From: Candidatus Woesearchaeota archaeon
GTDB taxonomy: Archaea > Nanobdellota > Nanobdellia > Pacearchaeales > GW2011-AR1
Direction: 5' to 3'
Assembly (NCBI GenBank): GCA_964534185.1
Contig: CAZHOH010000002.1
Coordinates: forward strand, 10,558 to 74,557
DNA length: 64,000 nt
The first letter of the stretch is position 1. Every line of letters begins with the position of its first letter. Both the position numbers and the translations under genes were made by a program. Positions 1,017 through 62,811 of this stretch are shown piece after piece. The notes beneath the pieces were generated by a model, which worked only from the letters and a program-made list of their open reading frames with translations, was not told where the DNA came from and did not search any database.

Positions 1017-3113
1017 TTAAAGAAAATCGGAAACGATTCTGCTGATGTCGGTCGCGCGGATGTCGCAGTCGTCGTCTAGCCCGATCTTCACGTCGGCGTG
1101 GAGCTTGTCGGAGGCGGAGCCCCGGGCGCGGCGATGGATCTTGAACAGGTCGAACAAGTTGGGCTTCGACAAGGACGACATGCCCTTGAGCACCTTCTCC
1201 AAGTCCCCCTTGGAGCGCATGATGTTGTTGATGACCTGCGAAGGCATGCCGATGTCCGCCCAGACGAACTCCCTGGGGCTGAGCCCGTCCGCTGCTCCCA
1301 GGTCGAATATAACGGGGACGCAGCTCCTGGACTGCGAGGCAAGGTCGAACCTACCCTGCAGCGTCCTAGGCTCGAATGCCTCCCCCGTCTGCATGCCGCT
1401 CCGCGTCATCCACCCCGCGAAGCACTCGGGCAGATCGCAGTAGGGATGCTCGGAAAACGAGTGGACGGTCATTACCGCGTACCTCACCCCCGACGCCAGG
1501 GCCTCGGAGACGTCGACGTCGAGGAACTCGCAGGCCCCCTGCGGGGCGTTGACTATGTCCCCGCTGTGAACGGCGTAGGAGTTGCGCAGTCTCAAGTACG
1601 ACACCTGGCCCAAGAACTCATGGTTCGCGGAAAAGAAGCCGCAGGACATGTCAATATCCGTGTTCTGGCGAGGCACGTTCTTCCACCAGAGGAACATCCG
1701 CACGAACTGACCGACGAACGGGAGGCGGCTGCCCCTGGCCAGAGAACGGAGGGACTTGGACGCGCTGCGTTGGCTGAAGGGTATAACGCACTTCTCGAGG
1801 GCGGGGTCAATCCAGACCTTGCCCAACCAGGGGCGTCTGCTGAAGATGTTCACGAGCCCGTTGTACGCCTGGTTCGTCACGCTGGCGACGACCTGGGCGG
1901 GAAGGGGCTCGTGGCGGGGCAGAACCTCCAGCTTGGCCACGTTGCCCTTCGGAATGACCACCCTGTCGCAGTGGTTGCGGCCGCGGAAGTGAGCCATCAC
2001 CTGCAGCAGGACAGGTGCGGATATCCGCTCGCTTACGGACAGTTCGGCGAACTTGCTGATGACCTTGTCTCGCGTCGACGCGTCGTCGCAAAGGCGAAGC
2101 ATGTGATCCATCCGCCGCGCATAGAGGCTGGGGCGAAGCTCCAGCAAGGAAATGGCGCTCGTCACGTCCCTCCTGGCCAGGAAGGCCTCCACCATTCCAT
2201 CGAAGGTCTGTATGGTCTCTTCATGGTTGCGCAGCGTCCCGAAGGCGTCAGCGACCGGCCGCAGGCGACTCTTGCGCGCGAACTCCCCGGGATGGACTCG
2301 CTCTCCCAGGCGCAGCCACTTGCCTCTGTGCCTCGCGAAGTCCTCCATCTTCATGTTCGTGCCGGCGAGCATCTCCATCAAGGCGCGGCGCTCCGGGCGG
2401 GAGAAGCTGCGGAACCGCGTGTCGCTGGCCAGCGACACGTCTCCCCCGGAGAGGGCGACGGCGACCCGCAGCACGTCGGTCACGTTCTTGACAGCCCCAT
2501 TGATGAGGGACAGGGGCAAGACTTCGTCGCTCAGGATCCCGGCGACTGTGGCTATTATCTCCTTGTGCCTCATCTCTGGCACGCGCGCCTTCTCCCGGTA
2601 GGTCTTGAAGTACCACCTCAGGTCCTCGACGTCCGCTGGCGAGATCGAGGTCCCGGAGGAAAGCAACCCCTCGAATATGCCGAGGAAGTCCCCGTCGCTG
2701 CCCATGCGTATCAGCTTGAGGTTCGTATCCTCGCCTAGGGGTTCCCGTGGCGCCTTCTCGTAGGCCGGGAGTATCCGCAGCCCGAAGGCGGAACCTATGT
2801 AATGCATCATGGCATTGATGTACAACTCAGCGTCGCTTGCCTCCATGACCTGCTCGGGGAAGTTGGGATACATCGGCTCCCACTTCTTGTCAGCCCCGGT
2901 CATCTCGCGCAAGGCCCTCATGAGGCCATGGCCCCACTTGTTGAACTTCCTAGATCCGAGGCAATGCATGATGAGATCGGAGTCGAGCGTGAAGCCGAGC
3001 GACTCGATGTTCTTCAGGAGGGTTGCCACCTCTTTGGTGTTGTCCTGGTCCGCGACCCCCCTCGGGGGAAGGACCCTCATTCGGTGACGAAGATAAATGT
3101 TGTTGCGCCCCAT
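1017..3113 (-). CDS. large protein (698 aa) with C-terminal TerD-like beta-sandwich domain
   Basis: Long ORF with RBS AAGGAG 8 nt upstream of the ATG. The C-terminal ~180 aa (TDIDMSCGFF...HSGDIVNAPQGACEFLDVDV...VMTVHSF) follows the TerD pattern DxDxS...SGDN..G...E.i.vdL. The N-terminal 2/3 is unrecognised. Confidence 0.65.
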   Translation of the reverse strand: MGRNNIYLRHRMRVLPPRGVADQDNTKEVATLLKNIESLGFTLDSDLIMHCLGSRKFNKWGHGLMRALREMTGADKKWEPMYPNFPEQVMEASDAELYINAMMHYIGSAFGLRILPAYEKAPREPLGEDTNLKLIRMGSDGDFLGIFEGLLSSGTSISPADVEDLRWYFKTYREKARVPEMRHKEIIATVAGILSDEVLPLSLINGAVKNVTDVLRVAVALSGGDVSLASDTRFRSFSRPERRALMEMLAGTNMKMEDFARHRGKWLRLGERVHPGEFARKSRLRPVADAFGTLRNHEETIQTFDGMVEAFLARRDVTSAISLLELRPSLYARRMDHMLRLCDDASTRDKVISKFAELSVSERISAPVLLQVMAHFRGRNHCDRVVIPKGNVAKLEVLPRHEPLPAQVVASVTNQAYNGLVNIFSRRPWLGKVWIDPALEKCVIPFSQRSASKSLRSLARGSRLPFVGQFVRMFLWWKNVPRQNTDIDMSCGFFSANHEFLGQVSYLRLRNSYAVHSGDIVNAPQGACEFLDVDVSEALASGVRYAVMTVHSFSEHPYCDLPECFAGWMTRSGMQTGEAFEPRTLQGRFDLASQSRSCVPVIFDLGAADGLSPREFVWADIGMPSQVINNIMRSKGDLEKVLKGMSSLSKPNLFDLFKIHRRARGSASDKLHADVKIGLDDDCDIRATDISRIVSDFL

Positions 3114-3135
3114 GCCTCTGCTCCTTCATGAGTGC

Positions 3136-3163
3136 GGGCGCTAGGGGTAACCCCCTGGCGCCC
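3136..3163 (-). promoter_or_regulatory. GC-rich hairpin in the 5' leader of the TerD-like gene
   Basis: gggcgctagggg-taa-ccccctggcgccc forms ~12 bp with one bulge, 23-50 nt upstream of the ATG at 3113. No U-tract follows on the minus strand. Confidence 0.3.
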
Positions 3164-3334
3164 GACTTAGTAATTGGCGGTAATTGGACGCCCGGTATCA
3201 CGTAAAGTATAGAAGGATGGACGTCCGTAGCCGCCATTTTTAAAGGCAATTGGGAAACCGCTTATTTAGAAGGATGGCTTCCCGCATCCTCTTCGCCTTA
3301 AACATTATAGCAATAGAAGGCGCACGCGCAAGTT

Positions 3335-8420: not shown

Positions 8421-9995
8421 CTAGGTCTCGAACTCGACAAGGTAACGCAAAACGTTCTGGTCTTCTTGATAAACGATCCACTCGTTGTTCATCACATGGC
8501 TGTAATTCGCCTTGCCAAACACGCTGTGGCAACCCCCCGGGGGGGAGGTATACCCGCGCGGGCCTGGAGCCAGGAAGGGTTTCCCGAGGACGACGTCGCC
8601 GAGGAACATGAAGGCCTTGCGGCCTCGCACTGCGCCGCGCCCTCCGGACCAGAACGAGTTCTGTAGGCTACAGTATCCCGCGGCCTTCTTCCAGTCGTCG
8701 GCCCAGTACGTTCCAGGTCCGAACATGGCTCCTGTGATGGCTACGCCCACCAGCTTCTTCGGCATCATCAGGCTCTTGGACAAGATTCCGCTGACATTGA
8801 CGGAGCGGGTGCCGTGGAACAGCAGGGCGGTTCTGGAGTCCCTATGGGCCGAGAGCGTCCCGTTCAGGTCGGGTCGCGAGCGAGGCGAGAACATAGGCTT
8901 CTCCCGGGAACTGGGCTTCTGCGCGGCAATCTGCGCCTGCTTGGCGTCGAACCGATGGCGGCAGGTCGGCTTGTTCGCCTCCCAGATGTTATGGACCTTC
9001 ATTTGCCCAAGTCCCCTGTGGAGGTTTCGCGTCGCCCGGGGCAGGAAGTCCATGATCCACTTGCCTTCCCCCCGGGGGTCAAGCCAGCGCATCTCGAGGT
9101 CTATCCCATCCAGGGGATTGCGGGTCATGTCGTCGATGTCCTCGAGGCTGGTGGACAAGGCTTGCTCGAACGCGTCAAGGTCCTGTTGCCATGTCAGGAT
9201 GTTCTTTTGCGACAGAACCCACGTGGACTCGTCCGCGCCGACGGGCTTGACCTTCGGGATGCGCGAGTAGAGCAGCCGACTGAATTCTCTCAGCCGCTTG
9301 TCCTTGACCTGACGGTCAGGGTCGTCGCCTACTTTCGACAGCCGCTTCAGGGCCTCCGTGAGGATGTGCCTACCTTCGTTGATGGCATCCTGGGTAGGGA
9401 TGCTGTCGTCCGCCATCGAGTTGCGCGTGTAGTTGGCGGTCGCTACGTTTAGGTCGTGCATCAACTGCATGACCTTCGGATCCGGCAGGGAGTCCGCGCG
9501 CCTCGCCTTGCTCGACTTCTTGGTTTTCTTGGCGGGAGCGTCTCCCGTCTGAATCTTCTTCGCCCCGGGCAATCCGGTCGACCTGGTTGCCTGCGGGCGG
9601 ACGAGGTAGCAGTCCTTGCCCTTTTTTGCCCGCAGGGCCTGTATCCCGGAGATCTTCGTCCATTCTCCGCGCTTGTCATTCTTGCTGTGCAGTTGCTTCT
9701 CGTATGCCTTCCGCGCCTCGTCCTCGCACATGGCCATGACGAACTGGAAGTCCGGACGGGAAGCGCCGGTGCGGCCCCACTCGAAATAGGCGTACCATTC
9801 CCCCGTCTGCTTGGATCTGACGACGGCCCCGTGGTAGAACTTGTTGGTGTCCCGTCCGTCCTGGGTGAAACATCCCAGGTCAGCGACCCCAGTGTCCTCG
9901 AACTCCCCATCCTTGACCGCAGGAGGGCCAAAGCACTCGAAGTCATCGGGGCCATGGCAAGCAGGAAACTGACGTTTTGGTAGTTTGGTAGCCAT
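8421..9995 (-). CDS. poly(ADP-ribose) polymerase-like protein (WGR + helical + PARP catalytic domains)
   Basis: WGR: KFYHGAVV...WYAYFEWGRTGASRP. Catalytic H-Y-E: LLFHGTRS, GPGTYWADD, NNEWIVYQEDQ. Confidence 0.85.
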   Translation of the reverse strand: MATKLPKRQFPACHGPDDFECFGPPAVKDGEFEDTGVADLGCFTQDGRDTNKFYHGAVVRSKQTGEWYAYFEWGRTGASRPDFQFVMAMCEDEARKAYEKQLHSKNDKRGEWTKISGIQALRAKKGKDCYLVRPQATRSTGLPGAKKIQTGDAPAKKTKKSSKARRADSLPDPKVMQLMHDLNVATANYTRNSMADDSIPTQDAINEGRHILTEALKRLSKVGDDPDRQVKDKRLREFSRLLYSRIPKVKPVGADESTWVLSQKNILTWQQDLDAFEQALSTSLEDIDDMTRNPLDGIDLEMRWLDPRGEGKWIMDFLPRATRNLHRGLGQMKVHNIWEANKPTCRHRFDAKQAQIAAQKPSSREKPMFSPRSRPDLNGTLSAHRDSRTALLFHGTRSVNVSGILSKSLMMPKKLVGVAITGAMFGPGTYWADDWKKAAGYCSLQNSFWSGGRGAVRGRKAFMFLGDVVLGKPFLAPGPRGYTSPPGGCHSVFGKANYSHVMNNEWIVYQEDQNVLRYLVEFET

Positions 9996-11883: not shown

Positions 11884-11921
11884 CGTTATCTAGCCCCCGC
11901 CGATGAGCCAGAGGTACTCCG

Positions 11922-11953
11922 CTGGCCCCGGAGAGTCGTCGAACCGGGGCCAG
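11922..11953 (-). promoter_or_regulatory. perfect 10-bp-stem hairpin CTGGCCCCGG-N12-CCGGGGCCAG just downstream of the ParB-like gene
   Basis: Read directly: ctggccccgg agagtcgtcgaa ccggggccag. No U-tract, so it is not a canonical intrinsic terminator. Confidence 0.4.
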
Positions 11954-12943: not shown

Positions 12944-12954
12944 GCGTCGGCAAA

Positions 12955-12988
12955 GAGGCCCCGGAGCAACCGGGGCCTCTTTGCCTTA
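12955..12988. terminator. hairpin AAGAGGCCCCGG-AGCAA-CCGGGGCCTCTT, terminator-like on both strands
   Basis: Perfect inverted repeat read directly. It is followed on the plus strand by tgccttattttt, and it lies between two minus-strand genes. Confidence 0.4.
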
Positions 12989-23355: not shown

Positions 23356-25599
23356 TCAGTTGTCAATTTCTTGATCCACGTCCACCCACTGGTTGGCCAA
23401 GGGGTAGATGACCTTCATGATCGCCTTGTCAATTCTATGGCTTTTCCCGTTGATCATGTGCCATATTACCCCCCTCAAAACGGCCGGGGCATCTTTCTGG
23501 GCGATTCCTAGCTTCTTCTTGGCCTGCGAGTCGCCCTTGTCGTAGTGCTTGGCCAGAAAGTCGTTGGCCATGGCCAAGATCCTAGACTTTGCCTCGTCGT
23601 ACTGGGACTCGATCTTGTCCTTGTATTGCTCGGCCAGTTCGCGCATTTCCTCCGGAATCTCGGCCATTCGAGACTCCGAGACCTTGCCGTCCGACATCGC
23701 CTCCCACATCAAGATGGGCGAGAGGCCCATCATGACCTTCGACATGTCCTTGTACCAGTCGGTCTTGACCTTTACCCTGCGGCCGTCCTGAAACCTTATG
23801 ACGTACCCCTCGAAGTGCTTGGCTTTACTCGCCACCTCCAGGCAGTCTTCCAGGCTCAGCGAGTCGTAGCGCCGAACGACATGCAAATCGGCCAGTCTGG
23901 CCCACTCCTCGACCAGGTCGCGCGGGTACTCCTCCCCGGTATGGCGGTTGAAGGCCGCCAGCACGTAGAGCCCCGTCTCGTCGTAGTCCAGGATGATCTT
24001 CTGGTCATGATTGATGATCTCGAAGACCAGCGTCGCCTCGTCCGGCAAGGCCGACAGGTTCTTGCGCGAGATGTACTGTGTGGCCCACTGCGACCCAGGG
24101 GAATGGAACGACCCCCGGCTGGCCACCTTGTACTCGCCCTGGTGGCGGTAGAGGACGCCAAGCCATCCATCCAGCTTCTCGTAGACCTCGTAGGGCTTGT
24201 CCCACGGGAGGTTCTCGCGAAGGGTCTCCTCGCGCTCCCCGAGGTTGAAGAACTTTGGAAACGCCCAGGCCACGCACTCCCCCGTCTCAAGATCATAGAT
24301 GTGGCCACGGCAGTTCAGCGTCACGTCGTCCCAGGCGCGATCGAATACACACTGGTCGGTATAGGTGTAGATCGCCAGCCTGTCGTCGTCCGTCCTGTCC
24401 CCGCGCAGCAGGCCCGCCTCCATGTACGCCTCCCTGCGGGCGACGTGCTCGTGGGGGTTCTCCTTACACCCGGGGAAGGAGTTCGTCGCGTAGGCGCGCT
24501 TGGCCTGGACGTAGTGGGGCCGCTGGGTAGCGGAGTCCCAGAACTTCAGGTACCCGCCGAACACGCAGCCGCCGTCAAGGTGGGCGATGTTGTTATAGCA
24601 TGGCCCCGCGGGGTCGGGGTTGTGCCCGAAGAAGACCCTCGGGGCGTCGGACGGCCATAGACGGTTCCACAAGATCCCCGTCTGCGCGTCGAAGTAGGAG
24701 TCCCCTCCGTAGTAGCGCATGTAGAGGCAGTCGGACCTGAACTGCTCGTCCGGGTCTCGCGTCGGGTCGAATCCCGCGTGGACAACGTAGCCATGGGGAA
24801 CCCGGAGGATCAGTGGGCAGCCCTTGAGGAAGGAGACGAACTCATCCTTTACCTGCTCGCCGTCCTCGTCCTGCTGGAACGAGTCGATCGTTGCCTGCAG
24901 GCCATGGGCTAGCTTGACCGGGTTGCCCTTGGCCCAGCGCAGGAACTTGTCCTCGTGGTTTCCAAGGACCATGTGGAGGTTGAGGGACATGAGGTGTCGC
25001 ACCACCCCCAAGGGGTCTGGCCCTCGGTCGATGACGTCCCCTACCGAGACGAGCACGTCCTGCTCGGGACGAAACCCAAGCTCGACGAGGCCCTGCTGAA
25101 ACTCGTCATAGCACCCGTGTATGTCGCCGACGATGATGTAGCGGCGGCCCCCGATCTCATCGCGGACGTCCTTAACGAGGACGCTGCACGGGGCTTCGCC
25201 CTCTACTGTCAACTCGTCGGCCTCCCTCCTCGATGGCGCCTGGAACTGCGAGAAGTACATGCCGAGGGCCTTTCCCGCGTTCTCCGGGCGCAGCGTGGGA
25301 TGTTTGCCACGCGAGGCGATCCTCTCGCGGCACACGTCGCAGTTCTCGTTCAGCCATACGATCTTAGTGTGATAACCGGCCTTCTTGGCGGGAGACAGGT
25401 ACCGGCGCCGCTGCTGGCGATTGTGGTTGATGCGGTCGACGACGACGTTGTCCCCGCGCGCCACTGCCTCCTCGAACAGGCGCAGGTGATCCTTGCCCTG
25501 ATCGTCCTGGGAAACCCGCACGTAGCCCTTGAGGTTCTTGTCGCAGTAAGTCGTCTTGCCCGACCCCTGCGGGCCAACCATCAGCACGAGATCGCTCAT
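23356..25599 (-). CDS. trifunctional polynucleotide kinase / metallophosphoesterase / RNA-ligase-type protein (Pnkp-like)
   Basis: N-terminus: GPQGSGKTT (P-loop kinase). Middle: VGDIHGC, GDVIDRGPD, GNHE (calcineurin-like phosphatase). C-terminus: YEKLDGWLGV (KxDG adenylyltransferase motif I). AAGGAGG RBS. Confidence 0.85.
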   Translation of the reverse strand: MSDLVLMVGPQGSGKTTYCDKNLKGYVRVSQDDQGKDHLRLFEEAVARGDNVVVDRINHNRQQRRRYLSPAKKAGYHTKIVWLNENCDVCRERIASRGKHPTLRPENAGKALGMYFSQFQAPSRREADELTVEGEAPCSVLVKDVRDEIGGRRYIIVGDIHGCYDEFQQGLVELGFRPEQDVLVSVGDVIDRGPDPLGVVRHLMSLNLHMVLGNHEDKFLRWAKGNPVKLAHGLQATIDSFQQDEDGEQVKDEFVSFLKGCPLILRVPHGYVVHAGFDPTRDPDEQFRSDCLYMRYYGGDSYFDAQTGILWNRLWPSDAPRVFFGHNPDPAGPCYNNIAHLDGGCVFGGYLKFWDSATQRPHYVQAKRAYATNSFPGCKENPHEHVARREAYMEAGLLRGDRTDDDRLAIYTYTDQCVFDRAWDDVTLNCRGHIYDLETGECVAWAFPKFFNLGEREETLRENLPWDKPYEVYEKLDGWLGVLYRHQGEYKVASRGSFHSPGSQWATQYISRKNLSALPDEATLVFEIINHDQKIILDYDETGLYVLAAFNRHTGEEYPRDLVEEWARLADLHVVRRYDSLSLEDCLEVASKAKHFEGYVIRFQDGRRVKVKTDWYKDMSKVMMGLSPILMWEAMSDGKVSESRMAEIPEEMRELAEQYKDKIESQYDEAKSRILAMANDFLAKHYDKGDSQAKKKLGIAQKDAPAVLRGVIWHMINGKSHRIDKAIMKVIYPLANQWVDVDQEIDN

Positions 25600-25656: not shown

Positions 25657-26646
25657 TCAATCGTCGATGCGGCTCAATAGGTCTGATTTGAGCGCGTCGG
25701 GCAATGCCTTCAAAATAAGCAGCCATTCCTCTGTGTTTTTGACGGGATGAAGAGTGAATATCTCGTTGGCCCTTGAAATGGCTTGATTTGCGACCCCGGG
25801 GCCTACGCGACCCTCAGCCACGTCGTAATGGAGCCTTTTCTCGTCCTCGTAATAGCAGACTCTCTCGGATAAAGGTTTGGTTTTTCGAGCCTCAAATCTA
25901 GCCTTTCTCAGATATATACCGAAGAACAACTCGCTGCTAGTAATCGTATTGTCACGCATGACGAGAGGGAATGTGTTGCCTGGGATCTCATTCAGGACGA
26001 GAGATACAGCCCTGCGTGATAGCCACCAGAAATGGCCCTGAAGAGAATGCAGGCAACCTATGTTAGGAACGTCTCTATGGTTCCTCTGCCATTGCTCCGA
26101 TGCATTGTCGTACCTCTTTCTGATCAGTTTGGGCAGGTAGCGCACCAGTAAGCCTGACACGTCATACGGGGCAGCATCATGGCGCAAGATCAGGGTGTCC
26201 GGGTCTACGACGGCCAGAAAATCCGAGTCGCCCTGATTGATGAATTTACGAAAAATGTCCCTGTACGAGGAGAAGAGGTGATGCCTGTTGTCTCCGGCAA
26301 AGACGCTCAGCGGTAGTCCTACGTCGGGCAGTTTCCTTTCGCGACGCTGGCATATCCATACATTACCAACGTTTTGAAAGGCGGTAACGGCGAGCCTGAG
26401 GCATCTGTGGATGACCTCGTCCGGCTCGTCATAGACCAAAGCAGCCACGTCTATCTTCATTTTTCTTCTAGGGGCGCCTCCCGTCGCAAGCACCGAACCG
26501 ATCCCCTCGACCTCAACCTGCTTGGCCTTGGCCTTGGCCTTGGCCTTGGCTTTGGCCGGAGGATTGAGCGAGAAGCCCCAGCACCTCTCAGATCCGTAGG
26601 AGCAACCTCGTCCCCCGGGGGACGAGGTTTTTCTTTGTCGAGCCAT
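25657..26646 (-). CDS. GT-A-like glycosyltransferase carrying the shared 31-aa N-terminal module and an (AK)n linker
   Basis: MARQRKTSSPGGRGCSYGSERCWGFSLNPPA + AKAKAKAKAKAK + a body with FLAVVDPD (DxD-like). TAGGAGG RBS. Confidence 0.65.
   Translation of the reverse strand: MARQRKTSSPGGRGCSYGSERCWGFSLNPPAKAKAKAKAKAKQVEVEGIGSVLATGGAPRRKMKIDVAALVYDEPDEVIHRCLRLAVTAFQNVGNVWICQRRERKLPDVGLPLSVFAGDNRHHLFSSYRDIFRKFINQGDSDFLAVVDPDTLILRHDAAPYDVSGLLVRYLPKLIRKRYDNASEQWQRNHRDVPNIGCLHSLQGHFWWLSRRAVSLVLNEIPGNTFPLVMRDNTITSSELFFGIYLRKARFEARKTKPLSERVCYYEDEKRLHYDVAEGRVGPGVANQAISRANEIFTLHPVKNTEEWLLILKALPDALKSDLLSRIDD
26521..26556 (-). repeat. hexanucleotide microsatellite (GCCAAG)x6 in frame, encoding (AK)6
   Basis: Plus strand reads cttggc x5 then tttggc. 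Confidence 0.9.
26604..26629. repeat. 26-nt perfect palindrome AACCTCGTCCCCCGGGGGACGAGGTT (copy A)
   Basis: Read directly. Identical copies are at 28763-28788 and 49612-49637. It covers roughly codons 6-14 of the shared N-terminal module. Confidence 0.9.
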
Positions 26647-26701
26647 GTTGCCTCCTACCAGCCTGTTGGGATGCCGAGAGAAAAATCCCTTCCAGGAGAT
26701 G

Positions 26702-26731
26702 TTACATTCAACTTCAAGTGGCCCGTATAAT
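26702..26731 (+). promoter_or_regulatory. candidate promoter giving a leaderless methyltransferase mRNA
   Basis: TTACAT (26702-26707), 18 nt spacer, TATAAT (26726-26731). The ATG at 26738 is 7 nt after the -10 box, and no RBS lies between. Confidence 0.4.
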
Positions 26732-26737
26732 TACGGA

Positions 26738-27880
26738 ATGAACATCGTATCGCTGTTTACGGGAGCCATGGGGCTAGATCTGGGGCTAGAGGCCGCGGGC
26801 TTCCAGGCCGAGGTATGCGCCGACACCGACCGGTTCTGCCGCGAGACCATCGCCGCCAACAAGCCAGAGTCCAGGATCCTCGATGACGTCGCCAAGGTAA
26901 CGATAGACACGGCGCCGCGAAACCCCTGCATAGTGGCAGGGGGGCCTCCCTGCCAGTCATGGTCGACGGCCGGCAGGCGCAAGGGGTTCGACGACCCCCG
27001 GGGGGAACAAGTCCTAGAGTTTGGGCGGGTGGTTGCCGACTTGCGGCCCCGCTTTTTCGTGATGGAGAACGTGCGCGGACTCACCTCCATGCTGACCGGC
27101 GACAACCGCTTGGCCATAAACGTCATAGAGGAAGAGTTCGAGTCCATCGGCTACAAGGTGGTCCGCGGCGTGCTGAACGCGGTCGACTATGGAACCCCAC
27201 AGTTTCGGGACAGACTCATCATGATCGGATCCCGCGACGGCGAAGACATCTTCCTGCCATTGCCCACGCACTTCCAGAAACACCAGGAAGAAAGCATGAG
27301 GTGGGTGACTCTTGGCAAAGCCCTCCAGGGCATAGCCATAGATTCCCCGGGGGACTTCCAGGAATTCTCGCCCCGGCGCAAATCATGGCTGGAGAAGATC
27401 CCCCCGGGGGGGAATTGGAAGAGCCTGTCGGAGCAAGACCAGAGGAAGGCCATGGGAGAGGCCTACAACTCTGGGGGAGGCAAGACAGGCTTCTTCCGCC
27501 GGTTGTCCTACGACGAGCCCTCCCCGACGCTGGTGACCTCGCCGACGCAGAAATCCACGATTTTGTGCCACCCGGAGAAAACCCGCCCCCTAAGCACGCT
27601 GGAATACGCGCGGATACAGGACTTCCCCCGGGGGTGGAGCATACGGGGGAACACAACGGAAGTCTACAGGCAGATAGGGAACGCCGTCCCCGTCAGGCTT
27701 GGGCGCGCAATCGGGCAGGCGTTGCTCTCGACCATGAGCAAAAGCCACGTGGTAAAGGCCTCCCGCGTGCGCAAAGACGCCAGCGAGGAAGAAAGGACGC
27801 CAGTCCGCCCGCGCAAGAGAGCGGAGGAAGAAGAGCTCACCAAAGCAGGCATGGAGGCCTGGGGGATGCAAGATGTTTGA
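26738..27880 (+). CDS. DNA (cytosine-5)-methyltransferase
   Basis: SLFTGAMGLDLG (I), GGPPCQSWS (IV), FFVMENVRG (VI), QFRDRLIMIG (VIII), YRQIGNAVPV (X). Start reset to ATG 26738. Confidence 0.92.
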   Translation: MNIVSLFTGAMGLDLGLEAAGFQAEVCADTDRFCRETIAANKPESRILDDVAKVTIDTAPRNPCIVAGGPPCQSWSTAGRRKGFDDPRGEQVLEFGRVVADLRPRFFVMENVRGLTSMLTGDNRLAINVIEEEFESIGYKVVRGVLNAVDYGTPQFRDRLIMIGSRDGEDIFLPLPTHFQKHQEESMRWVTLGKALQGIAIDSPGDFQEFSPRRKSWLEKIPPGGNWKSLSEQDQRKAMGEAYNSGGGKTGFFRRLSYDEPSPTLVTSPTQKSTILCHPEKTRPLSTLEYARIQDFPRGWSIRGNTTEVYRQIGNAVPVRLGRAIGQALLSTMSKSHVVKASRVRKDASEEERTPVRPRKRAEEEELTKAGMEAWGMQDV

Positions 27881-28658
27881 CGATTTGAACGTAACCACCG
27901 AAGTAAAAAAGGCGTGGGTTAACCGATTCAAAGCATTTGAACACGGAACTGCCTACCTTCTTCCATACAAGGTCAAACAGATCCGCAAAGTAGTTGTTCG
28001 CGCCGTGGAACCAGAATACGAACTTGAAATGTCATCCGGTAACAAGGTTATAGCCGACCTAAAAAACCAACTGACGCCTTTCTTCTCGGTCAACAGCCAG
28101 CTAGACGCAATGCTCAGGCTTCCTGAGGAAACGTTGCGCGCAATCAAGGAGGCCGGACTGATCGGCAAGGGCATGGCCCGAAGGGACATGGTGCACCCTG
28201 GATTCTCGCGGCTGGAGGACGCCGTCTCCATCAACGTCAAGACCATAGTCAAGTATCCCCGGGATACTGCCCTGATAATCGTGGTGTCCTGGAACAAGCC
28301 TTGGAAAGGCAGAATGGCCAATGATCCCGTCAACTCAATCTACGCAACTACGGTCGGCAAGGTCAGGGACCTTGTTGCGGACCGGCCTCTTGTTCACTGT
28401 TACAAGAGACGTTTGCCCGTAAAGGACGGGGTCGAAGTATACCCGAGCACCGTGGAAGAGCTCTGTTACTCGCCGATCAATGACGAGAATGGAGAAAGAA
28501 ACTCAGCGGCATCGGCCATTCTGGACATCAATGACTTCAAAAGGATCGCGACCTTCGACCCCGATTGGCTTGAAGAAACAAAACGTGTTGGCGAACGCTT
28601 GCACGAACAAGCCCTTCAGGACAAGAAAAAAGAACTAACCGACTTCCTGGGCTTCTGA
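27873..28658 (+). CDS. hypothetical protein translationally coupled to the methyltransferase (261 aa)
   Basis: The ATG at 27873 overlaps the MTase stop by 8 nt. No catalytic motif recognised. Confidence 0.6.
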   Translation: MFDDLNVTTEVKKAWVNRFKAFEHGTAYLLPYKVKQIRKVVVRAVEPEYELEMSSGNKVIADLKNQLTPFFSVNSQLDAMLRLPEETLRAIKEAGLIGKGMARRDMVHPGFSRLEDAVSINVKTIVKYPRDTALIIVVSWNKPWKGRMANDPVNSIYATTVGKVRDLVADRPLVHCYKRRLPVKDGVEVYPSTVEELCYSPINDENGERNSAASAILDINDFKRIATFDPDWLEETKRVGERLHEQALQDKKKELTDFLGF

Positions 28659-28745
28659 TGTTAAAACGAGCCCCCTCCACGTCCCCCCGGGGCGCCAGGG
28701 AAGGAATTTTTCTCTCGGCATCCCAACAGGCTGGTAGGAGGCAAC

Positions 28746-31127
28746 ATGGCTCGACAAAGAAAAACCTCGTCCCCCGGGGGACGAGGTTGTTCCTACGGAT
28801 CCAAGAGGTGCTGGGGCTTCTCGCTCAATCCTCCGGCCGCGGCCCCACGTCAGGCCAAGGTCGAGGCCAAGGTCAAGGCCAAGGTCAAGGCCAAGAACAA
28901 GGAGGAAGAGACGGTCATCGAACTAGCCTCATTGAACCCGGACGTCGTCTACTCGACCCAAGGCGGCGGGTTCGGCGACCACTGGCTCCTCTGCGGCGCT
29001 CTCCTACAGGCAAGTGAACTGCATGGCAAGCCATTCAGGCTGCGCCGGGGCAAGACGAGGGGTGAACCAAGGCCTTTCGCCGTGGACTACCAGGAGTACT
29101 TCGACACGCAAGGAGAGATCGTCGAGTCGGACAGCGAAGCCAAAGTCGTATTCTTCTCCAGGGATGGCGGCAAGAACGACCTCGAAAGGCTCATGAAAGA
29201 CGGGTATGACAATCCTGTCCCGGAGCGCATCATCCCCTGGAACTACCTTTTCGAGGTTCCCCTTGCCAAGACAAGAAAAACACACCTTGGATTGCGCTCC
29301 AGGGTCATCGCCTATCAGTTCAGGGCCAGATCCAGAAAGGACATCAAGGAATGCGCCCCCGGGGAGGAGGATCGCTTCCTGGAGGAGGCGGCGCTCGCCG
29401 GCTATAGAACGATCGAGGTAGGGAAGCATGTCCCCTTGGATAGATGTTTGGAAGTTCTGTCATGGTGCGAGTTCTACGTCGGCATAGACACAGGACCTAC
29501 CCACCTCGCGCTCAACGTCGGCGCGCCGACGTGGGTCGTCCGCAACGGCGCCGACCTTGACTTTACATACAAGCATAGGAACATCACCGCGCTTCCGCGC
29601 CTCGGGGACGCAGGCTCTCTCCTGACGGCCTGCCAGCCACAAAAGAAAGCCTCCTTCCTCGTCCCCTGCAAGAACCGCTTGGAGTTTGCCAAGCAGACTC
29701 TCCCTCTGCTGGATTTCTTCGTGGGACAGGGGCACGAGGTCATATTCGTGGACTACGATTGCCCGCAACGATCAGGGGAGTGGGTCAAGAGCAACCATCC
29801 CGGCGTGACGGTCATCGAGGTAAAGGACAAGAAAAAGTATAACGCTGGAGAGGCTCGCAACCTAGCGGCCGCGGCGGCTAGGAACGACTGGCTTTGCTGG
29901 ATGGACTGCGACATAAAAGTCCATCCGAACTTCCTGGCCGAGCTGTGCCGCCTGGAAAAAGGCCAGTTCCTGTTCTTCGCCAAGAACGACCTCGTCCCCC
30001 GCAGGGGGATGGGTGGCTTGATGGCATGCTCCCGAGACGCGTATTACGAAGCAGGAGGCTACAGCAGTTACTACGACGAGTACGGCGGCAAAGACATAGA
30101 GTTCAAGTACAGGCTCTTCCAGAACGGAGAGGAGCCGCTGCAAGTCAACCCGCTCTGCGTCGAGCACGTCCCGCACCCTGATCATCTAAGGGTTCAGTTC
30201 TACGACAAGAAGAACCGACGGCTCGCGATCAAGGACAGCAACGCGGCGCTCAAGCAACGCATGCGGCACTTCGCAAAGAGAAACGAGCCACCCCCGTGGC
30301 AATTGAACTATGACAAGGCCGAGTACTCTCAGTTCTTCAACAAGGTCATCGTCAAACAACTTAGCCTTCATGTCACCGACCATTGCAACTTCAACTGCAT
30401 CGGGTGCAACCACGCTTCCCCATACTACGAGCCGAACAATCTCGACCCGGTATGCTTCTCGGAGCCGCTCCAGAAACTGGGGGAATTCTGCTACGCCAAG
30501 GAAATACACCTAGTTGGAGGAGAACCCTTCCTGCACCCTGACCTGTACGGATTCATCCGCTCCATCAAGGAGAGCAACAAGGTAAGCGACTTCATTCGCC
30601 TCTATACAAACGGCTTCTGGCTGTCAGAGCGCGGCCTGCTGCGTCACGCGCCAGTCCTCGACCAAATAGATGCGCTTCATGTCAGCATGCACCCCGAGTC
30701 CCCCGGGGGCGAGGTTGTTGAACAGATGCTGAGAACGATCAAGAAGAAACATCACATAGTGGCCCAGAAACACCGTAACGACAGGTTTTACAAGGTCGGG
30801 TTTCGAGAATCCCCCGCTGGGAGAGGATCCTGTCCCGTCAAGAAGTGCATGCACCTGTTGCCTGACGGAAGACTGGTCAAATGTGCCGTCGCGGGCTACT
30901 ACGCCCCGAAAAGCGAGGATGTTACGAAAGGCTTCATGGACCATTCCGGATCCGCTTTCTACGATGTGTCCCAGGGAAATTGCGAAAGCTTTGCCAAGTG
31001 GTATAATGGCATGGCTCAGTGCTGCAGGTTCTGTGGCTACGCGGAAGACTCCATACCATACGTGGGCAGAGTTGCAGGAGTTGGTCATGTCAAGAATCAG
31101 CGGAACAAAAGAGTGGGCGACGGATAG
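28746..31127 (+). CDS. multidomain protein: shared N-terminal module + GT9-like + GT2 + radical SAM (SPASM/twitch-like Cys tail)
   Basis: MARQRKTSSPGGRGCSYGSKRCWGFSLNPPA. GGGFGDHW...VGIDTGPTHLALNVGAP (GT9/heptosyltransferase-like). FLVPCKN...WMDCD (GT2 DxD). HCNFNCIGC (CxxxCxxC). C-terminal CPVKKC...C...CCRFCGY. Confidence 0.8.
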   Translation: MARQRKTSSPGGRGCSYGSKRCWGFSLNPPAAAPRQAKVEAKVKAKVKAKNKEEETVIELASLNPDVVYSTQGGGFGDHWLLCGALLQASELHGKPFRLRRGKTRGEPRPFAVDYQEYFDTQGEIVESDSEAKVVFFSRDGGKNDLERLMKDGYDNPVPERIIPWNYLFEVPLAKTRKTHLGLRSRVIAYQFRARSRKDIKECAPGEEDRFLEEAALAGYRTIEVGKHVPLDRCLEVLSWCEFYVGIDTGPTHLALNVGAPTWVVRNGADLDFTYKHRNITALPRLGDAGSLLTACQPQKKASFLVPCKNRLEFAKQTLPLLDFFVGQGHEVIFVDYDCPQRSGEWVKSNHPGVTVIEVKDKKKYNAGEARNLAAAAARNDWLCWMDCDIKVHPNFLAELCRLEKGQFLFFAKNDLVPRRGMGGLMACSRDAYYEAGGYSSYYDEYGGKDIEFKYRLFQNGEEPLQVNPLCVEHVPHPDHLRVQFYDKKNRRLAIKDSNAALKQRMRHFAKRNEPPPWQLNYDKAEYSQFFNKVIVKQLSLHVTDHCNFNCIGCNHASPYYEPNNLDPVCFSEPLQKLGEFCYAKEIHLVGGEPFLHPDLYGFIRSIKESNKVSDFIRLYTNGFWLSERGLLRHAPVLDQIDALHVSMHPESPGGEVVEQMLRTIKKKHHIVAQKHRNDRFYKVGFRESPAGRGSCPVKKCMHLLPDGRLVKCAVAGYYAPKSEDVTKGFMDHSGSAFYDVSQGNCESFAKWYNGMAQCCRFCGYAEDSIPYVGRVAGVGHVKNQRNKRVGDG
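28854..28901 (+). repeat. 12-nt in-frame tandem repeat (GCCAAGGTCRAG)x4 encoding AKVE/AKVK
   Basis: gccaaggtcgag gccaaggtcaag gccaaggtcaag gccaagaacaag. Confidence 0.85.
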
Positions 31128-43065: not shown

Positions 43066-43214
43066 GAAAAACTCTCCGAGGAGACCATCGCCTTCGGCGG
43101 CCAAACTCGTCGAGGACAAGGCCTCGACGATCGGTCCCCGGCGAAGCGCGAGCCGCCCCGGGGCCTAGCCCCGGGAATCCGCACCCTTCAGGGGGCGGAG
43201 GATGTCAAGTCTTG

Positions 43215-46510: not shown

Positions 46511-48604
46511 TCACCACGTGGCGGCCAATCGAAAGGATAACACTCCGAAAGCGCACGCAGCAGCAACTGGGACGACGCCATTTCCCAGCAGGCGTAGCTG
46601 GTCTGTTCGACGCTCGTGGTCGAGTCTGTCCATCCCGGAGGCCACCCCATCAGCCATTCTACAAAGAGCGGGTTCAAGAAGCGGCTCGGCTTCAAGGACT
46701 TGCTCCCATTCCCTGAAGTCCCCTGGCCCCGGGGGCGCGAGGGGGAGGATTGTTCCAGATGGGCCTCGAAAACCTGCGACCACACCTTTGCCAGCGTCTC
46801 GACATGAACCTGATGGCTGCCGCTCTCCGACTGCCCCTTCCGAAGAACCTGCTCGACGCTCATAGCCCTGCCCCCGTTGGGCACGTTCGGCGTTGGCCAG
46901 AGACAGTTCCACACGTCGCTCCACATTTTCGCTACGACCTGGAGGCTCGTCGGAGTCTTCCGGGGGCCTCCCTTCATGCGCCGCTTCATCGCCATGTGGG
47001 CCCCAGGGGTCTTGTTGTCGTCGTTCGCCACCGCCGTTGGCCACAGCGGCCCATTCTGCCGCCCGGAGGATGGCCTCTTCTCCCGGTCTCGCGCCGGCGA
47101 TGAAGAGACGCTTTCGGACATGGCACAGTCCGACTTCCGCCGCCGAGAATAGTCCTGCTTCAACGTCGTAGCCCAGGCCTTGTAGGTCTCTGGCGACCTC
47201 GTCGAAGCCGACGTTAACGTGGTTGGGTACGTTCTCGAAAAAGAGGACGCGGGGTTCTGCCTCCTGGACGATCCTCCTGACGCTGGGCCAGAGGTGGCGG
47301 GGATCCTCCTTGCCCTTGATTCTCCCGGCACAGGAGAACGGCTGGCAGTTGTGGACGACAGTTCCGTCTGCCACGTAAGACTCATCGTCTCGGACTGCGA
47401 TGTTATAGACTGTGTCCTTGCCAACAGGGGCGTTTGAGCTGACGCGCTTCCATCCAAGACCTTGGTCGACGAAGGATGCACGATTGCGATCAGGGATGGA
47501 CACGATCCATGACGGCCTTTGTCTGACGAGTCTGCCTTCGATGACCTTATCTTTTGCGCTTTGGCAGCATCGAACGGCAGCAATGACCCCAAATGCTCGC
47601 TGAGAGAGCAGAGCGACACTGAGAGCAAGGGCCTTGCTCGCGGACTGAACTCGACGAAATCCCCCCTTTCCAACAGGGTTCTTATGTGCTCCTCCGTCTC
47701 CAGACAAGCATCCCTCAAGCAAGGCCCTGGCCTTTCCCTCTCCGAGGGAAAGGTACTTTCCGGGGATACGCTTGCCGCGGGCATGTCGTCCGAATTGCTG
47801 CAAGAACTTGAAGAAACATGTTCTTGTAATGGCGAATCTGGTTGTTGTTCGCTCCTCGCTCCTGTAGGCGCTAAGCCCTGCTTCTTGTATTCGCCTTTCA
47901 AGTTCGTCTGCCTCTGGTCTGTTGCAACAGATGTTGACACGACCATTTCTGTGGGAAGGAGATTTTTGGAGCCAACCGTCAGCCAAGTACCTCCCGACGA
48001 GCCACCAGAATTCTTTTGATCGTTTGTCTGGGCGCACTGGAGGGAGAGCCTGAGCCACCCAATGCGCTCCGGTGAGTTCCTTTGCCTGCACCCAATCAGG
48101 GGAACCAAAAGATCGCTGTCTTCCCTTTTGTTTGCACCTAGCGAAGAAGGGGTGCTCTTCTGTGCATCTGATTCCCGGGGTTCCTTGCGCCTTGATTTCC
48201 CTGATTGGGGCACCGTCCTTGCGCATGACCGCTGTGACTGGCTTCCATCTGGCTCGGTGGGTAAGGACCAGATCTCCAACTCGAACGTCTTCGATGGGGA
48301 CATATCCTCGCTTGCATAAGACGAGGGTTCCTGAGACGAAGCACGGGTACCCTCCAGTGACGCAATCCACGACGCCACGCCATCTTCTGCCGTCGAAGGT
48401 CTTGGCATCCGTCCAAATAGGCGCGTCGTCCAGCCGCCCTTCTTCCATGCGTGATGCCAGTACTTCGATGGCATATCCTTCCCTCTCCACGTAGCAGACG
48501 ACGCGAGAGCCTCCGACCGCCATTCGGAGTCCGAGCTCGAGTCCGCCGCCGCCGGAGCAGAGAGACAGAACGTTGAAGGTACGTATGCCCACATCTTTGT
48601 TCAT
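46511..48604 (-). CDS. DNA (cytosine-5)-methyltransferase interrupted by an intein
   Basis: LSLCSGGGGLELG (I), GGYP|C...HN|CQPFS (IV split), LFFENVPN (VI), RKRLFIAG (VIII), LLGNGVVP (X). See findings for the second open frame. Confidence 0.85.
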   Translation of the reverse strand: MNKDVGIRTFNVLSLCSGGGGLELGLRMAVGGSRVVCYVEREGYAIEVLASRMEEGRLDDAPIWTDAKTFDGRRWRGVVDCVTGGYPCFVSGTLVLCKRGYVPIEDVRVGDLVLTHRARWKPVTAVMRKDGAPIREIKAQGTPGIRCTEEHPFFARCKQKGRQRSFGSPDWVQAKELTGAHWVAQALPPVRPDKRSKEFWWLVGRYLADGWLQKSPSHRNGRVNICCNRPEADELERRIQEAGLSAYRSEERTTTRFAITRTCFFKFLQQFGRHARGKRIPGKYLSLGEGKARALLEGCLSGDGGAHKNPVGKGGFRRVQSASKALALSVALLSQRAFGVIAAVRCCQSAKDKVIEGRLVRQRPSWIVSIPDRNRASFVDQGLGWKRVSSNAPVGKDTVYNIAVRDDESYVADGTVVHNCQPFSCAGRIKGKEDPRHLWPSVRRIVQEAEPRVLFFENVPNHVNVGFDEVARDLQGLGYDVEAGLFSAAEVGLCHVRKRLFIAGARPGEEAILRAAEWAAVANGGGERRQQDPWGPHGDEAAHEGRPPEDSDEPPGRSENVERRVELSLANAERAQRGQGYERRAGSSEGAVGERQPSGSCRDAGKGVVAGFRGPSGTILPLAPPGPGDFREWEQVLEAEPLLEPALCRMADGVASGMDRLDHERRTDQLRLLGNGVVPVAAACAFGVLSFRLAATW
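47348..48343 (-). mobile_element. 332-aa class-1 intein with LAGLIDADG homing-endonuclease domain
   Basis: Starts CFVSGTLV (block A). Contains CTEEHPFF (block B TxxH), LVGRYLADGW and LLEGCLSGDGG (two LAGLIDADG motifs). Ends VADGTVVHN, followed by the +1 Cys of CQPFS. Confidence 0.85.
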
Positions 48605-48631: not shown

Positions 48632-49654
48632 CTACGGGGCCAGCCTCCTTTTGATTTCCTCGCGGACAAACACGCGCGTCGCGTCCAGTTTTTCCTGGAG
48701 AGTCATCTTATCCCGCTCCTTTCCCCAGTAGAGAACGCTCACGTCGGGCCTGTCATGGAGCGGAAGCCATCCTGGCACGTATAGTCCCCAGAACTCGTCT
48801 ACCGAGATCGCCGGCATACCAAAGGAAGGGGCAAGAAAGCCCCCGCCTCCCATGCTTAATGTAAACTCCGCCCCGCTCATTACCTCTAGCTGTCTCTGCA
48901 GGTACTCGGTTCGAACCGGCTTCTTCAGTGTCTCCAGAAACATAGTCTCGTTGCCAATCCTGTTACGGTCTACCCGATCCAGCCGATCTAGGCCCGTGTG
49001 TGGGGCCCAACCAACCCCGATGACTTCGTAGCCGTAGTGGTTGACCAACTCCTTTAATTCCAGCCATTCTAGGAAAGGCAGGCTCCTGCCTCCCGCCGTG
49101 CCACCAAACTCGTCTCCTTTCAGCCACCTTTCGGACAAGCAGGGTATGAAGCACACGTACTTGCGAGGATCCTTCTTGACCCAGGACCAGTCCATCTTCG
49201 CATTGACCAGTTCCCTCGGGAAGTCCCTCCGCATCTTGGAAAATAACTTCAGAACGGCGCTCTTTCCCGTCCCCTCCTTGGCCGGGAAATGATATGAATC
49301 GCTGAACTGGCTCCAAACCTCTTCCTTCAGGTCGTCAAGCCACTCGGAATGTATATTGACCTCGTCTCCGAGCCACCGCTTCAACAGGAAAGCTGGCCAT
49401 ATGCGGGTGACGCATACCTCGCCGAACTCACCGCCGTGAATGATGTTCCTAAGATCCAGATCTATCTTCTCCCTGGGACGGCGCAGAGGGGAGGCCTCAA
49501 CCTCCTCCTCAACCTTGGCCTCAACCTCCTCCTCCTCAACCTTGGCCTGACGTGGGGCCGCGGCCGGAGGATTGAGCGAGAAGCCCCAGCACCTCTTGGA
49601 TCCGTAGGAACAACCTCGTCCCCCGGGGGACGAGGTTTTTCTTTGTCGAGCCAT
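48632..49654 (-). CDS. GT9-like glycosyltransferase carrying the shared 31-aa N-terminal module and a VE/AK linker
   Basis: MARQRKTSSPGGRGCSYGSKRCWGFSLNPPA + AAAPRQAKVEEEEVEAKVEEEVEA + a GT-B-like body. Start reset to ATG 49654 with a TAGGAGG RBS. Confidence 0.65.
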   Translation of the reverse strand: MARQRKTSSPGGRGCSYGSKRCWGFSLNPPAAAPRQAKVEEEEVEAKVEEEVEASPLRRPREKIDLDLRNIIHGGEFGEVCVTRIWPAFLLKRWLGDEVNIHSEWLDDLKEEVWSQFSDSYHFPAKEGTGKSAVLKLFSKMRRDFPRELVNAKMDWSWVKKDPRKYVCFIPCLSERWLKGDEFGGTAGGRSLPFLEWLELKELVNHYGYEVIGVGWAPHTGLDRLDRVDRNRIGNETMFLETLKKPVRTEYLQRQLEVMSGAEFTLSMGGGGFLAPSFGMPAISVDEFWGLYVPGWLPLHDRPDVSVLYWGKERDKMTLQEKLDATRVFVREEIKRRLAP

Positions 49655-49906
49655 GTTGCCTCCTACCAGCCTGTTGGGATGCCGAGAGAAAAATTCCTTC
49701 CCCCGGGGGGCGCGGGAGGGCGTCCATGGCATCGCCGAGGAGGCCAAGCCCTATGCGCTCCTGTTGGCAGTGACGCGAGACTCGGGTGCGTCGGCATTCG
49801 TCAACCTAGTTCAGGATCGGTATGACCTTCACGTACCCGCGACGAGAGGGCCACAGCATGCACCATCCAAACATGATAGCCTCTGGCCTGTCGTACGAGA
49901 TCTCGG

Positions 49907-56526: not shown

Positions 56527-57113
56527 TGTTTCCGAAAAGCCCGAAGAGCTTCTGTCCCTTCGAGACTTTCTTGAAGAACATTTATTCTGTCTGAGACTTC
56601 TGGCGATACCCACCAGTCCTCAAACGGGTACCCATCGTTTCGGATGTCAGGCGCCGCCAAAACGTAACCACGCGCAAGAAAGATGCCGCGGGACGCGCCA
56701 CGAAGATCATCCCCGAGCCTGTAAGAATCGTGCTCGAATGTTACGACGGAGAATTTATAGTCATCGAGTACGTCCGCCTCGATCTTCTTCAACGTAGACA
56801 ACGAAGCGTCGTCTACATCAAGACTCAGGTAGTCTATCTGCGCGGGAAAGGATAGCCTACGAAAAAGCGACCCATAGTCTATGGATGTAGAGTCCCGCAT
56901 AACTGCCTCGGAGCGCGGACGTTTCTTCTCGTACGAGGCTCTTCTGCTCGCGTCCATGTCTACAAGGCATCCGCGCCAGCCATACCGGGTCTCCAGCGCG
57001 TATGTATTACTGATCTGAATGGGGTCTCCCGCTCCGATATCAACAAACGTTCCTTCCCTTTTGGCGTTGAGGCAAAAGACTACGAATTCGTCCTGTAACG
57101 CTTGACTTTGCAT
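56523..57113 (-). CDS. FkbM-family SAM-dependent methyltransferase
   Basis: GTFVDIGAGDP. Confidence 0.7.
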   Translation of the reverse strand: MQSQALQDEFVVFCLNAKREGTFVDIGAGDPIQISNTYALETRYGWRGCLVDMDASRRASYEKKRPRSEAVMRDSTSIDYGSLFRRLSFPAQIDYLSLDVDDASLSTLKKIEADVLDDYKFSVVTFEHDSYRLGDDLRGASRGIFLARGYVLAAPDIRNDGYPFEDWWVSPEVSDRINVLQESLEGTEALRAFRKQ

Positions 57114-59097: not shown

Positions 59098-59106
59098 TTT
59101 CTTCTC

Positions 59107-59796
59107 CTATGACAACGTCTTGATGTAGGCCTCAGCGAACCTTCTGCCCAGCATCCCCATCCCTTGGAAAGTATGGTGAAGTGCGTCATCCTTGAGAGGA
59201 ATGTCATCCGTATTCAAACAGATTACTCTGTCCAGAACAGACGCTGCCTTATCTTGAGCGTCCCTTACATTGGGCCGAAACGGGAATCTCCCAACAGGAG
59301 GATTAACGCGACCCAAGAACAATGGTACGTCTGAGATATCCTTCCTCAACCGGGATACCAAGAGACGAAAGTTGTCCAAGTAAGTCATGGCTGCTGGCTT
59401 ATACTTGCAGTCTCTTTCTCCTTGCATCCAGAAAATGGCTCGTACACCATCCCCCTTCCGGTAAATACGACCAAACTCGCTGACGAGTTTTTGGTACATC
59501 GGGCCATCGGAAACGTTTTGGGTAATCGCAGCTCTTTTCTCGGTCCACTCGGGTGCCCATGCCAAGAGAGAAGTACCGTTCGCGGCGCACTTGAGTATCT
59601 TGACAGGTTCCTTTACCCGTTTTCGTATGTGTGACGCAAATTCATACTCAGGGCCCGCAAAAGGAAGTTCACAAAAACCTTTTTTTTTGCCGTCCCAGTA
59701 AACTTCGACGCCATCTATTGAGTTGGACACCGTCCGGCTAGAAGAGCACGTACCTACCATGTTGGACTGTCCGGCAAGAATAAAAATATGAGCCAT
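59107..59796 (-). CDS. carbohydrate esterase, sialate O-acetylesterase-like (GQSNM motif)
   Basis: IFILAGQSNMVG at the N-terminus. Confidence 0.7.
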   Translation of the reverse strand: MAHIFILAGQSNMVGTCSSSRTVSNSIDGVEVYWDGKKKGFCELPFAGPEYEFASHIRKRVKEPVKILKCAANGTSLLAWAPEWTEKRAAITQNVSDGPMYQKLVSEFGRIYRKGDGVRAIFWMQGERDCKYKPAAMTYLDNFRLLVSRLRKDISDVPLFLGRVNPPVGRFPFRPNVRDAQDKAASVLDRVICLNTDDIPLKDDALHHTFQGMGMLGRRFAEAYIKTLS

Positions 59797-59799
59797 CGA

Positions 59800-61401: not shown

Positions 61402-61402
61402 A

Positions 61403-62808: not shown

Positions 62809-62811
62809 ACC

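Follow-up and report, generated by a model that had tools for sequence, protein, structure and literature searches.

Why should three different genes of one genome carry the same perfect palindrome inside their first codons, and is the palindrome there for the RNA or for the DNA? The question is raised by a window of 64,000 nucleotides (nt) from contig CAZHOH010000002.1 of assembly GCA_964534185.1, filed under Candidatus Woesearchaeota archaeon, which by its gene content looks like part of a large phage. The 26-nt perfect palindrome AACCTCGTCCCCCGGGGGACGAGGTT, with CG at its centre, has three exact matches in the window. Copy 2, at 28763-28788 on the plus strand, lies in gene g2 (28746-31127, plus strand, 793 amino acids), while copy 1 (26604-26629) and copy 3 (49612-49637) lie in the minus-strand genes g1 (25657-26646, 329 amino acids) and g3 (48632-49654, 340 amino acids). 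All three matches reproduce positions given in an earlier note on this DNA. The number expected from 100 shuffles is 0, and no further sites appear when one to three mismatches are allowed. The palindrome is real and non-random.

The palindrome occupies nucleotides +18 to +43 of all three open reading frames (ORFs). In g2 the ATG is 28746-28748, and the palindrome begins 14 nt past it rather than 18 nt after it, as the note had put it. It starts at the third position of codon 6, ends at the first of codon 15 and codes for (K)TSSPGGRG(C). Because the centre of the palindrome falls on a codon boundary, TSSPGGRG is read from both strands. All three ORFs remain in frame through linkers that differ, and g2 has no plausible alternative start before its first domain; thus the leader region that contains the palindrome is translated.

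As a single strand the palindrome folds into a hairpin of 11 bp, 7 of them G-C pairs, closed by a CCGG loop (-19.4 kcal/mol, z = -3.6), and when the RNA of the gene start was folded this hairpin was present in every fold. The 13-bp stem that had been proposed is impossible because the palindrome is gapless. The A-tract said to precede the palindrome is present as AAAGAAAAA at 28756-28764 on the plus strand, the equivalent of a U-tract in the antisense direction, but it includes the first two A's of the palindrome, and the 9 nt strictly before it read ACAAAGAAA. At copies 1 and 3 the plus strand continues past the palindrome with TTTTTCTTT, at 26628-26636 and 49636-49644, respectively.

The core of the palindrome is the 10-nt word CCCCCGGGGG, which had been described as a genome-wide motif. 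Our counts agree: there are 22 copies where 0.20 are expected, an over-representation of approximately 100-fold, and CCCCCGGGGG is the commonest 10-mer of the window; GGGGGCCCCC has 0 copies. Twenty-one of the 22 sites are in coding sequence, with 6, 5 and 10 in frames 0, 1 and 2, respectively, irrespective of the strand of the gene; the encoded peptides are PPG, (S/T)PGG and PRG. Since the word is used in all frames and mostly within genes, it is a DNA-level word and not a peptide-level one. Its sites are confined to window positions 1-56400, with none in the low-GC final 7.6 kb.

Only the leader copies extend the word by 8+8 nt into a longer palindrome. In the remaining 19 sites the complementarity of the flanks is 27% as compared with a background of 25.7%, so the extension in the leader is beyond chance; a match at 8/8 flank pairs has p ~2e-5 per site and ~4e-4 over the ~20 independent sites. 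Codon usage points the same way. Rare codons make up the 3' arm (GGA 21%, CGA 6%, GGT 5% and TGT 18% usage), and every one of codons 2-6 is likewise rare and ends in A or T (GCT 9%, CGA 6%, CAA 27%, AGA 8% and AAA 19%), the last four of these spelling the A-tract. These rare codons indicate that the sequence is constrained, or was created, at the nucleotide level and not by the peptide.

The core word recalls HIP1 (GCGATCGC) and its variants, the highly iterated palindromes of cyanobacteria, which are linked to DNA methyltransferases (PMC4390886, PMC5861425). Like these, CCCCCGGGGG is palindromic, over-represented, mostly coding and independent of frame, and it resides in a genome with several cytosine methyltransferases; three Dcm-type genes in the window are candidates for a CCCCCGGGGG methyltransferase. 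Unlike HIP1, the word is 10 nt long, belongs to a phage-like genome and is extended only in its leader copy, and HIP sites have not been reported as extended 26-nt hairpins at gene starts. Whether the hairpin tunes translation or terminates antisense transcripts, the leader copies would show that a palindrome repeated so often, here in a genome that looks phage-like and is rich in cytosine methylases, can become part of a larger structured element.

The three palindromes are not independent. They belong to one module of approximately 170 nt whose copies are 92-99% identical: module copy 2 (28698-28866, plus strand) matches the reverse complement of copy 3 (49534-49702, minus strand) at 99.4% identity and that of copy 1 (26521-26693, minus strand) at 92%, with zero differences between copies 1 and 2 from -40 to +44. 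Copy 2 begins with a U-rich 5' untranslated region of ~48 nt that holds TTTTTCTCT at 28707-28715, followed by the ribosome-binding site (RBS) AGGAGG at 28736-28741, the ATG at 28746, codons 2-6 and the palindrome. Just 3' of the palindrome stands TTCCTAC (28790-28796), which resembles an anti-Shine-Dalgarno (anti-SD) sequence; the remainder of the 31-residue leader, MARQRKTSSPGGRGCSYGSKRCWGFSLNPPA, follows, and then the charged linker begins. In copy 1 a change of TGT to TGC at +45 converts a G.U pair into G-C in the pairing between the Shine-Dalgarno (SD) and anti-SD sequences.

Several other features of the module were examined. An imperfect palindrome, P1 (28673-28704, plus strand), centred on CCCCGGGG and followed by TTTTTCTCT, is found at copies 2 and 3 only, at about 49695-49725 in the latter, and has a poor terminator score (d about -47). 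No k-mer of the upstream 48 nt recurs in other intergenic regions, and a shared promoter motif was rejected on these grounds. A -1 frameshift signal was likewise rejected, as AGA AAA ACC does not fit the X XXY YYZ heptamer pattern and the hairpin follows after 0-1 nt, not 5-9 nt. Modules 1 and 2 form head-to-head inverted repeats around a 2.0-kb segment (26694-28697). This segment holds the second Dcm gene, with a TATAAT-like box at ~26725, and an orphan ORF of 261 amino acids, and recombination between the two modules would exchange the leader gene that lies downstream of it.

We tentatively favour the explanation that the palindrome acts as a hairpin in the sense mRNA, within a portable translation-start cassette, where it would slow early elongation and limit early translation. 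The analysis demonstrates the element, its non-randomness, position, fold and codon usage, while the effect on translation is inferred and would be of the following kind. A large phage would have placed the cassette before three different glycosyltransferase-like genes. In order, the cassette would consist of a U-rich leader, a strong GGAGG RBS, the AUG, 17 nt that A-ending rare codons would keep unstructured, and the 11-bp G+C-rich hairpin, which may have arisen by extension of one CCCCCGGGGG copy. An initiating ribosome covers mRNA to about +15, and the helicase entry site is near +11 to +13. The hairpin would thus begin exactly where the mRNA exits the initiating ribosome, so that the 30S subunit could still load, but the ribosome would have to melt about -19 kcal/mol within the first dozen codons. 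The start site would be cleared later as a result, which would cap and equalise what the three genes produce.

Several observations are in line with this proposal. The palindrome sits at a fixed +18 to +43, and the copies of the module do not differ between -40 and +44; the RBS of the module is strong, in keeping with the rest of the genes here. The rare codons of the 3' arm point to base pairing, and not the peptide, as what sets the sequence. Folding predicts that the A-rich stretch is mostly unpaired (mean 0.61-0.71). Local hairpin energy from +10 to +65 is -22 kcal/mol, as compared with a median of -13 among 57 gene starts, and no gene with a confident start has a stronger structure early in its coding sequence than the leader hairpin. 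Furthermore, gene starts are as a rule enriched in A: the A fraction at +4 to +18 (codons 2-6) is 0.33, as compared with 0.23 in gene bodies, with the leader at the top (0.53). The A-tract can therefore be explained without invoking termination.

The throttle suggested by the earlier note, taken as occlusion of the RBS, is a different matter. In every fold the SD sequence GUAGGAG is paired, with UUCCUAC in copies 2 and 3 and with CUCCUAC in copy 1, leaving GGAGG with an unpaired probability of 0.0-0.6. Accessibility of the SD sequence is 0.21-0.25 as compared with a median of 0.445, and that of the whole RBS is 0.47-0.51 as compared with 0.47. Nevertheless, native accessibility lies within 1 standard deviation of 200 synonymous recodings, and neither occlusion nor insulation of the RBS by the hairpin is supported, as neither effect is significant; the hairpin may instead slow the first translocations kinetically. 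The phage MS2 coat-protein operator and RNA thermometers are examples of translational operator hairpins and SD-sequestering leaders. The cassette resembles these in having a stable hairpin in the initiation region with a 7-nt anti-SD sequence (UUCCUAC or CUCCUAC) directly 3' of it. It differs from them in that the hairpin excludes the SD sequence and the AUG, and in that accessibility is not significantly different from that of the recoded controls.

A number of results weigh against a role of the hairpin in translation. The energy needed to open the region from -18 to +15 is 11.7 kcal/mol, as compared with 13.2 +/- 1.8 for the 200 synonymous recodings, and opening the SD sequence alone costs 6.6 as compared with 5.7 +/- 1.7. 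The fold of the whole region has a z of only -1.4 to -1.5. No homologues were found and hence no covariation, and the sole G.U to G-C change supports just the flanking SD:anti-SD helix. The copies diverge by 0-3% and are too alike to reveal purifying selection on the stem. Additionally, the 8/9 A-run exceeds that of every other gene start examined, which suits a designed U-tract better, and a perfect palindrome that has no loop is what one would sooner expect of a process acting on DNA than of a hairpin in RNA. If the hairpin does tune translation, the module would be a natural standardised expression cassette, with one RBS, start, N-terminal tag and structural element placed on unrelated enzymes, and would bear on the dosing of enzymes by large phages as well as on the design of insulators in synthetic biology.

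The alternative that survives best, although we judge it unlikely, is an intrinsic terminator, antisense or bidirectional, that frees polymerases running against the gene before they reach its RBS and promoter region. The shape of such a terminator, which the note had recognised, is evident on the antisense strand, where the hairpin followed by UUUUUCUUU passes a terminator scan at all three copies. Using our own implementation of the d'Aubenton-Carafa discriminant, we obtained d = +22 to +42 and T-scores of 3.7-4.7 for the antisense direction, whereas the sense direction, with UUGUUCCU, gave a borderline -23 to +5.5. Only 10 A/T tracts of at least 8/9 occur in 56.6 kb of high-GC sequence, and 3 of the 10 are at palindrome copies; tracts this rare, here spelled in rare codons, indicate that the adjacency of hairpin and tract is not accidental.

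In our own scan of the whole window for hairpins with T-tracts, the palindrome copies rank just behind 12949-12985. This is the strongest hairpin of the window (-35 kcal/mol, GGCAAAGAGGCCCCGG...CCGGGGCCTCTTTGCC), located between two minus-strand genes, and is probably a bidirectional terminator, with scores of +38 and +7. As at the palindrome copies, the T-tract (TTATTTTTC) and the genes beside it are on opposite strands, the tract being on the plus strand, so this genome may make regular use of terminators that face antisense or work in both directions. As in known intrinsic and bidirectional terminators, the palindrome forms a G+C-rich 11-bp stem with a 4-nt loop and has a U-tract right after the stem on one strand, opposite the A-tract, and a weaker U-rich run on the other strand.

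The genomic context argues against this alternative, and against the specific claim that the element blocks antisense read-through. The antisense strand of g1, g2 and g3 has no ORF and no sigma-70-like promoter, and inspection of the module gave no acceptable -35/-10 pair for an antisense small-RNA promoter. The closest convergent genes end 3.1-3.9 kb from the palindrome copies. None of these convergent junctions has a terminator of its own, which speaks for the alternative, but an antisense RNA of more than 3 kb would be untranslated and so the usual prey of Rho. Unlike known terminators, the palindrome lies within codons 6-15 of three ORFs, has its strong direction antisense and does not end any recognisable transcription unit; in our placement test it was not at the 3' end of a same-strand unit. 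What follows the antisense hairpin is also inconsistent, being a sense gene at copy 1, where release would precede reading into a Dcm gene, and further antisense sequence at copies 2 and 3. In the sense direction the hairpin with UUGUUCCU would amount to weak attenuation.

Furthermore, the hairpins at gene ends in intergenic DNA of the window (for example around 965-1005, 3130-3165, 11905-11950 and 43150-43190) have G+C-rich stems, with CCCCGG/CCGGGG arms, and lack a U-tract on either strand. They suggest hairpin-only 3' ends in this system, so that termination at a U-tract is not evidently its way. Termination also leaves the location in codons 6-15 of a conserved start cassette without an explanation. 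In the sense-mRNA reading, the antisense terminator shape would follow from the placement of a G+C hairpin next to the A-rich beginning of a gene, with perhaps some secondary benefit. If an antisense terminator is nevertheless the correct explanation, this would be a clear case of a terminator within the first codons that shields gene starts from converging transcription.

Two further explanations, neither of which we consider probable, place the cause in the DNA. According to the first, the palindrome is a dyad site, either an operator for a dimeric protein that co-regulates the three genes, perhaps by reading CCCCCGGGGG or its cytosine methylation, or a crossover site between inverted modules. 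The DNA-level pressure on the core word (22 copies, three frames, 21 coding), the perfect symmetry through the centre, which is typical of DNA sites, and the presence of three C5-cytosine methyltransferase genes in the window, two of them adjoining leader genes, are all consistent with an operator. The head-to-head arrangement of modules 1 and 2 around 2.0 kb with a Dcm gene and an orphan ORF would allow an inversion that swaps promoters. However, no repressor-like or recombinase gene was found among the window ORFs scanned, and since the 19 other core sites are unextended, just three sites would be available to a protein specific for the 26-mer.

The comparison with known recombination sites is similarly mixed. 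Sites of the hix, gix and loxP type flank invertible segments. Here too a dyad of ~26 bp is found in inverted repeats, and the 2.0-kb segment that they enclose lies between two alternative genes, but the core is fully symmetric and would give a site-specific recombinase no directionality, and the palindrome is internal to the 170-bp repeat and not at its edge.

According to the second, to which we give just as little weight, the palindrome is a neutral by-product of replication, in which template switching perfected a quasi-palindrome at CCCCCGGGGG within a tolerant peptide, and the result was copied passively with the module. The three copies have a single origin and, at 0-3% divergence, are too young to show selection. 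The rare codons of the 3' arm are those expected if this arm was copied as the reverse complement of the 5' one, the peptide concerned (SSPGGRG) is of low complexity, and there is no measurable predicted effect on accessibility of the RBS. On the other hand, just 1 of ~20 independent core sites was extended, and that site is at a functionally loaded position against one of the genome's rarest A-tracts. A hairpin of -19 kcal/mol at codons 6-15 is also unlikely to be neutral for expression.

We regard as very improbable the more elaborate proposal that the three cassettes form a switch of phage glycan-building enzymes, whether as a methylation-sensitive operator that acts via CCCCCGGGGG, which would account for the adjacent Dcm genes, or by inversion of 26694-28697, in which this Dcm-bearing, promoter-carrying 2.0-kb segment would flip to drive g1 or g2 and give phase-variable glycosylation.

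A further point of comparison for the module as a whole is provided by SAS and ESAS, the start-associated sequences and their extended forms in cluster K mycobacteriophages. These repeats overlap the RBS and start of some genes, some of them with inverted repeats, and a role in translation is suspected but unproven (PMC3203893). The module, too, recurs in some genes of a phage-like genome, where it covers the RBS and the start. SAS, however, is a 13-bp motif, GGGATAGGAGCCC, upstream of the start, and the inverted repeats of ESAS are imperfect and spaced (PMC3203893), whereas the module measures 170 nt and spans 31 codons, with its palindrome downstream of the ATG. Membership in the SAS family was rejected, as the window has 30 matches at up to 3 mismatches where 25.3 are expected, and none of these is at a leader gene. 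The closest kinds of element are thus intrinsic or bidirectional terminators, HIP-type words for the core and, without membership, the start-associated repeats of cluster K.

Searches for relatives of the element gave the following results. The exact 26-mer had no match in viral or genome contigs, and its 20-nt core was found in metagenome contigs in just three unrelated high-GC intergenic hairpins. The leader peptide had no match in viral, metagenome or genome contigs, where the metagenome and genome searches were probably saturated by patterns from the low-complexity linker, and no homologue among 1.8 billion representative proteins; when the 40-residue leader was used in an exhaustive HMMER search, only spurious repeat proteins were returned. 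No match to the g1, g2 or g3 proteins was obtained in viral contigs, and word-indexed protein searches retrieved only g3 of the same genome, from an index so incomplete that the query's own entry was missed. A blastn search of phage GenBank was negative, and Rfam gave nothing at gathering thresholds and only noise below E = 0.38. The single Logan contig retrieved ends within the repeat, as k-mer assemblies do.

Two resemblances to the palindrome were noted within the window. At 30698-30719, inside g2, GTCCCCCGGGGG-CGAGGTTGTT matches the 3' half of the palindrome and its flank (22/23 identical, one gap) and codes for ESPGGEVV in the radical-SAM part of the protein. At 2418-2439 there is another perfect palindrome, of 22 nt (CGTGTCGCTGGCCAGCGACACG), within an ORF (1017-3113) that is a homologue of phrog_33734.

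The proteins behind the shared start are different from one another. All three begin with the common 31-residue leader MARQRKTSSPGGRGCSYGS(K/E)RCWGFSLNPPA and continue into a charged, low-complexity linker, which is (AK)6, AKVEAKVKAKVKAK or an acidic version; past the linker their bodies share no homology. In g2 the leader and linker precede three domains, in the order weakly GT9-like, GT2 and radical-SAM. The g1 protein has the (AK)6 linker and an orphan body, while in the g3 protein the linker is acidic and the orphan body bears a GT9-like motif at its C terminus. Searches of PDB, Pfam, PHROG and NCBIfam gave no matches for g1 or g3, and AlphaFold models of the two, built with no alignments, were unusable (pLDDT, the predicted local confidence, was 33). 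A leader of 31 residues plus a charged linker on three glycosyltransferase-like proteins is an architecture like that of a targeting or docking tag.

The surroundings of the three genes provide the basis for regarding the window as phage-like. It encodes three C5-cytosine methylases, one of which (46511-48604, minus strand) is interrupted by an intein, with Hint and intein splicing domains between the methylase motifs. Directly downstream of g1 is a kinase-phosphatase-RNA ligase fusion (23356-25599, minus strand) similar to the RNA-repair protein Pnkp, the closest viral relatives of which, at 35% identity, are on IMG/VR contigs of 91-467 kb with far lower G+C. A protein with PARP catalytic and WGR domains (8421-9995, minus strand) adjoins DHH-family and radical-SAM genes. 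Also encoded are a sigma-70-family factor, an NAD-dependent DNA ligase, an SbcD-like exonuclease and several PHROG-only proteins; the window proteins are singletons, and no tRNAs were found in the window. In addition, the window carries RmlA, a GT2 glycosyltransferase and a low-GC sugar-modification cluster. The latter is at 56700-64000, where G+C falls from ~60% to 47%, and comprises a UDP-GlcNAc 2-epimerase, a SASA esterase, an FkbM methyltransferase, a sulfotransferase, a DegT aminotransferase and a GNAT protein. As it contains no CCCCCGGGGG site, this region was probably acquired recently.

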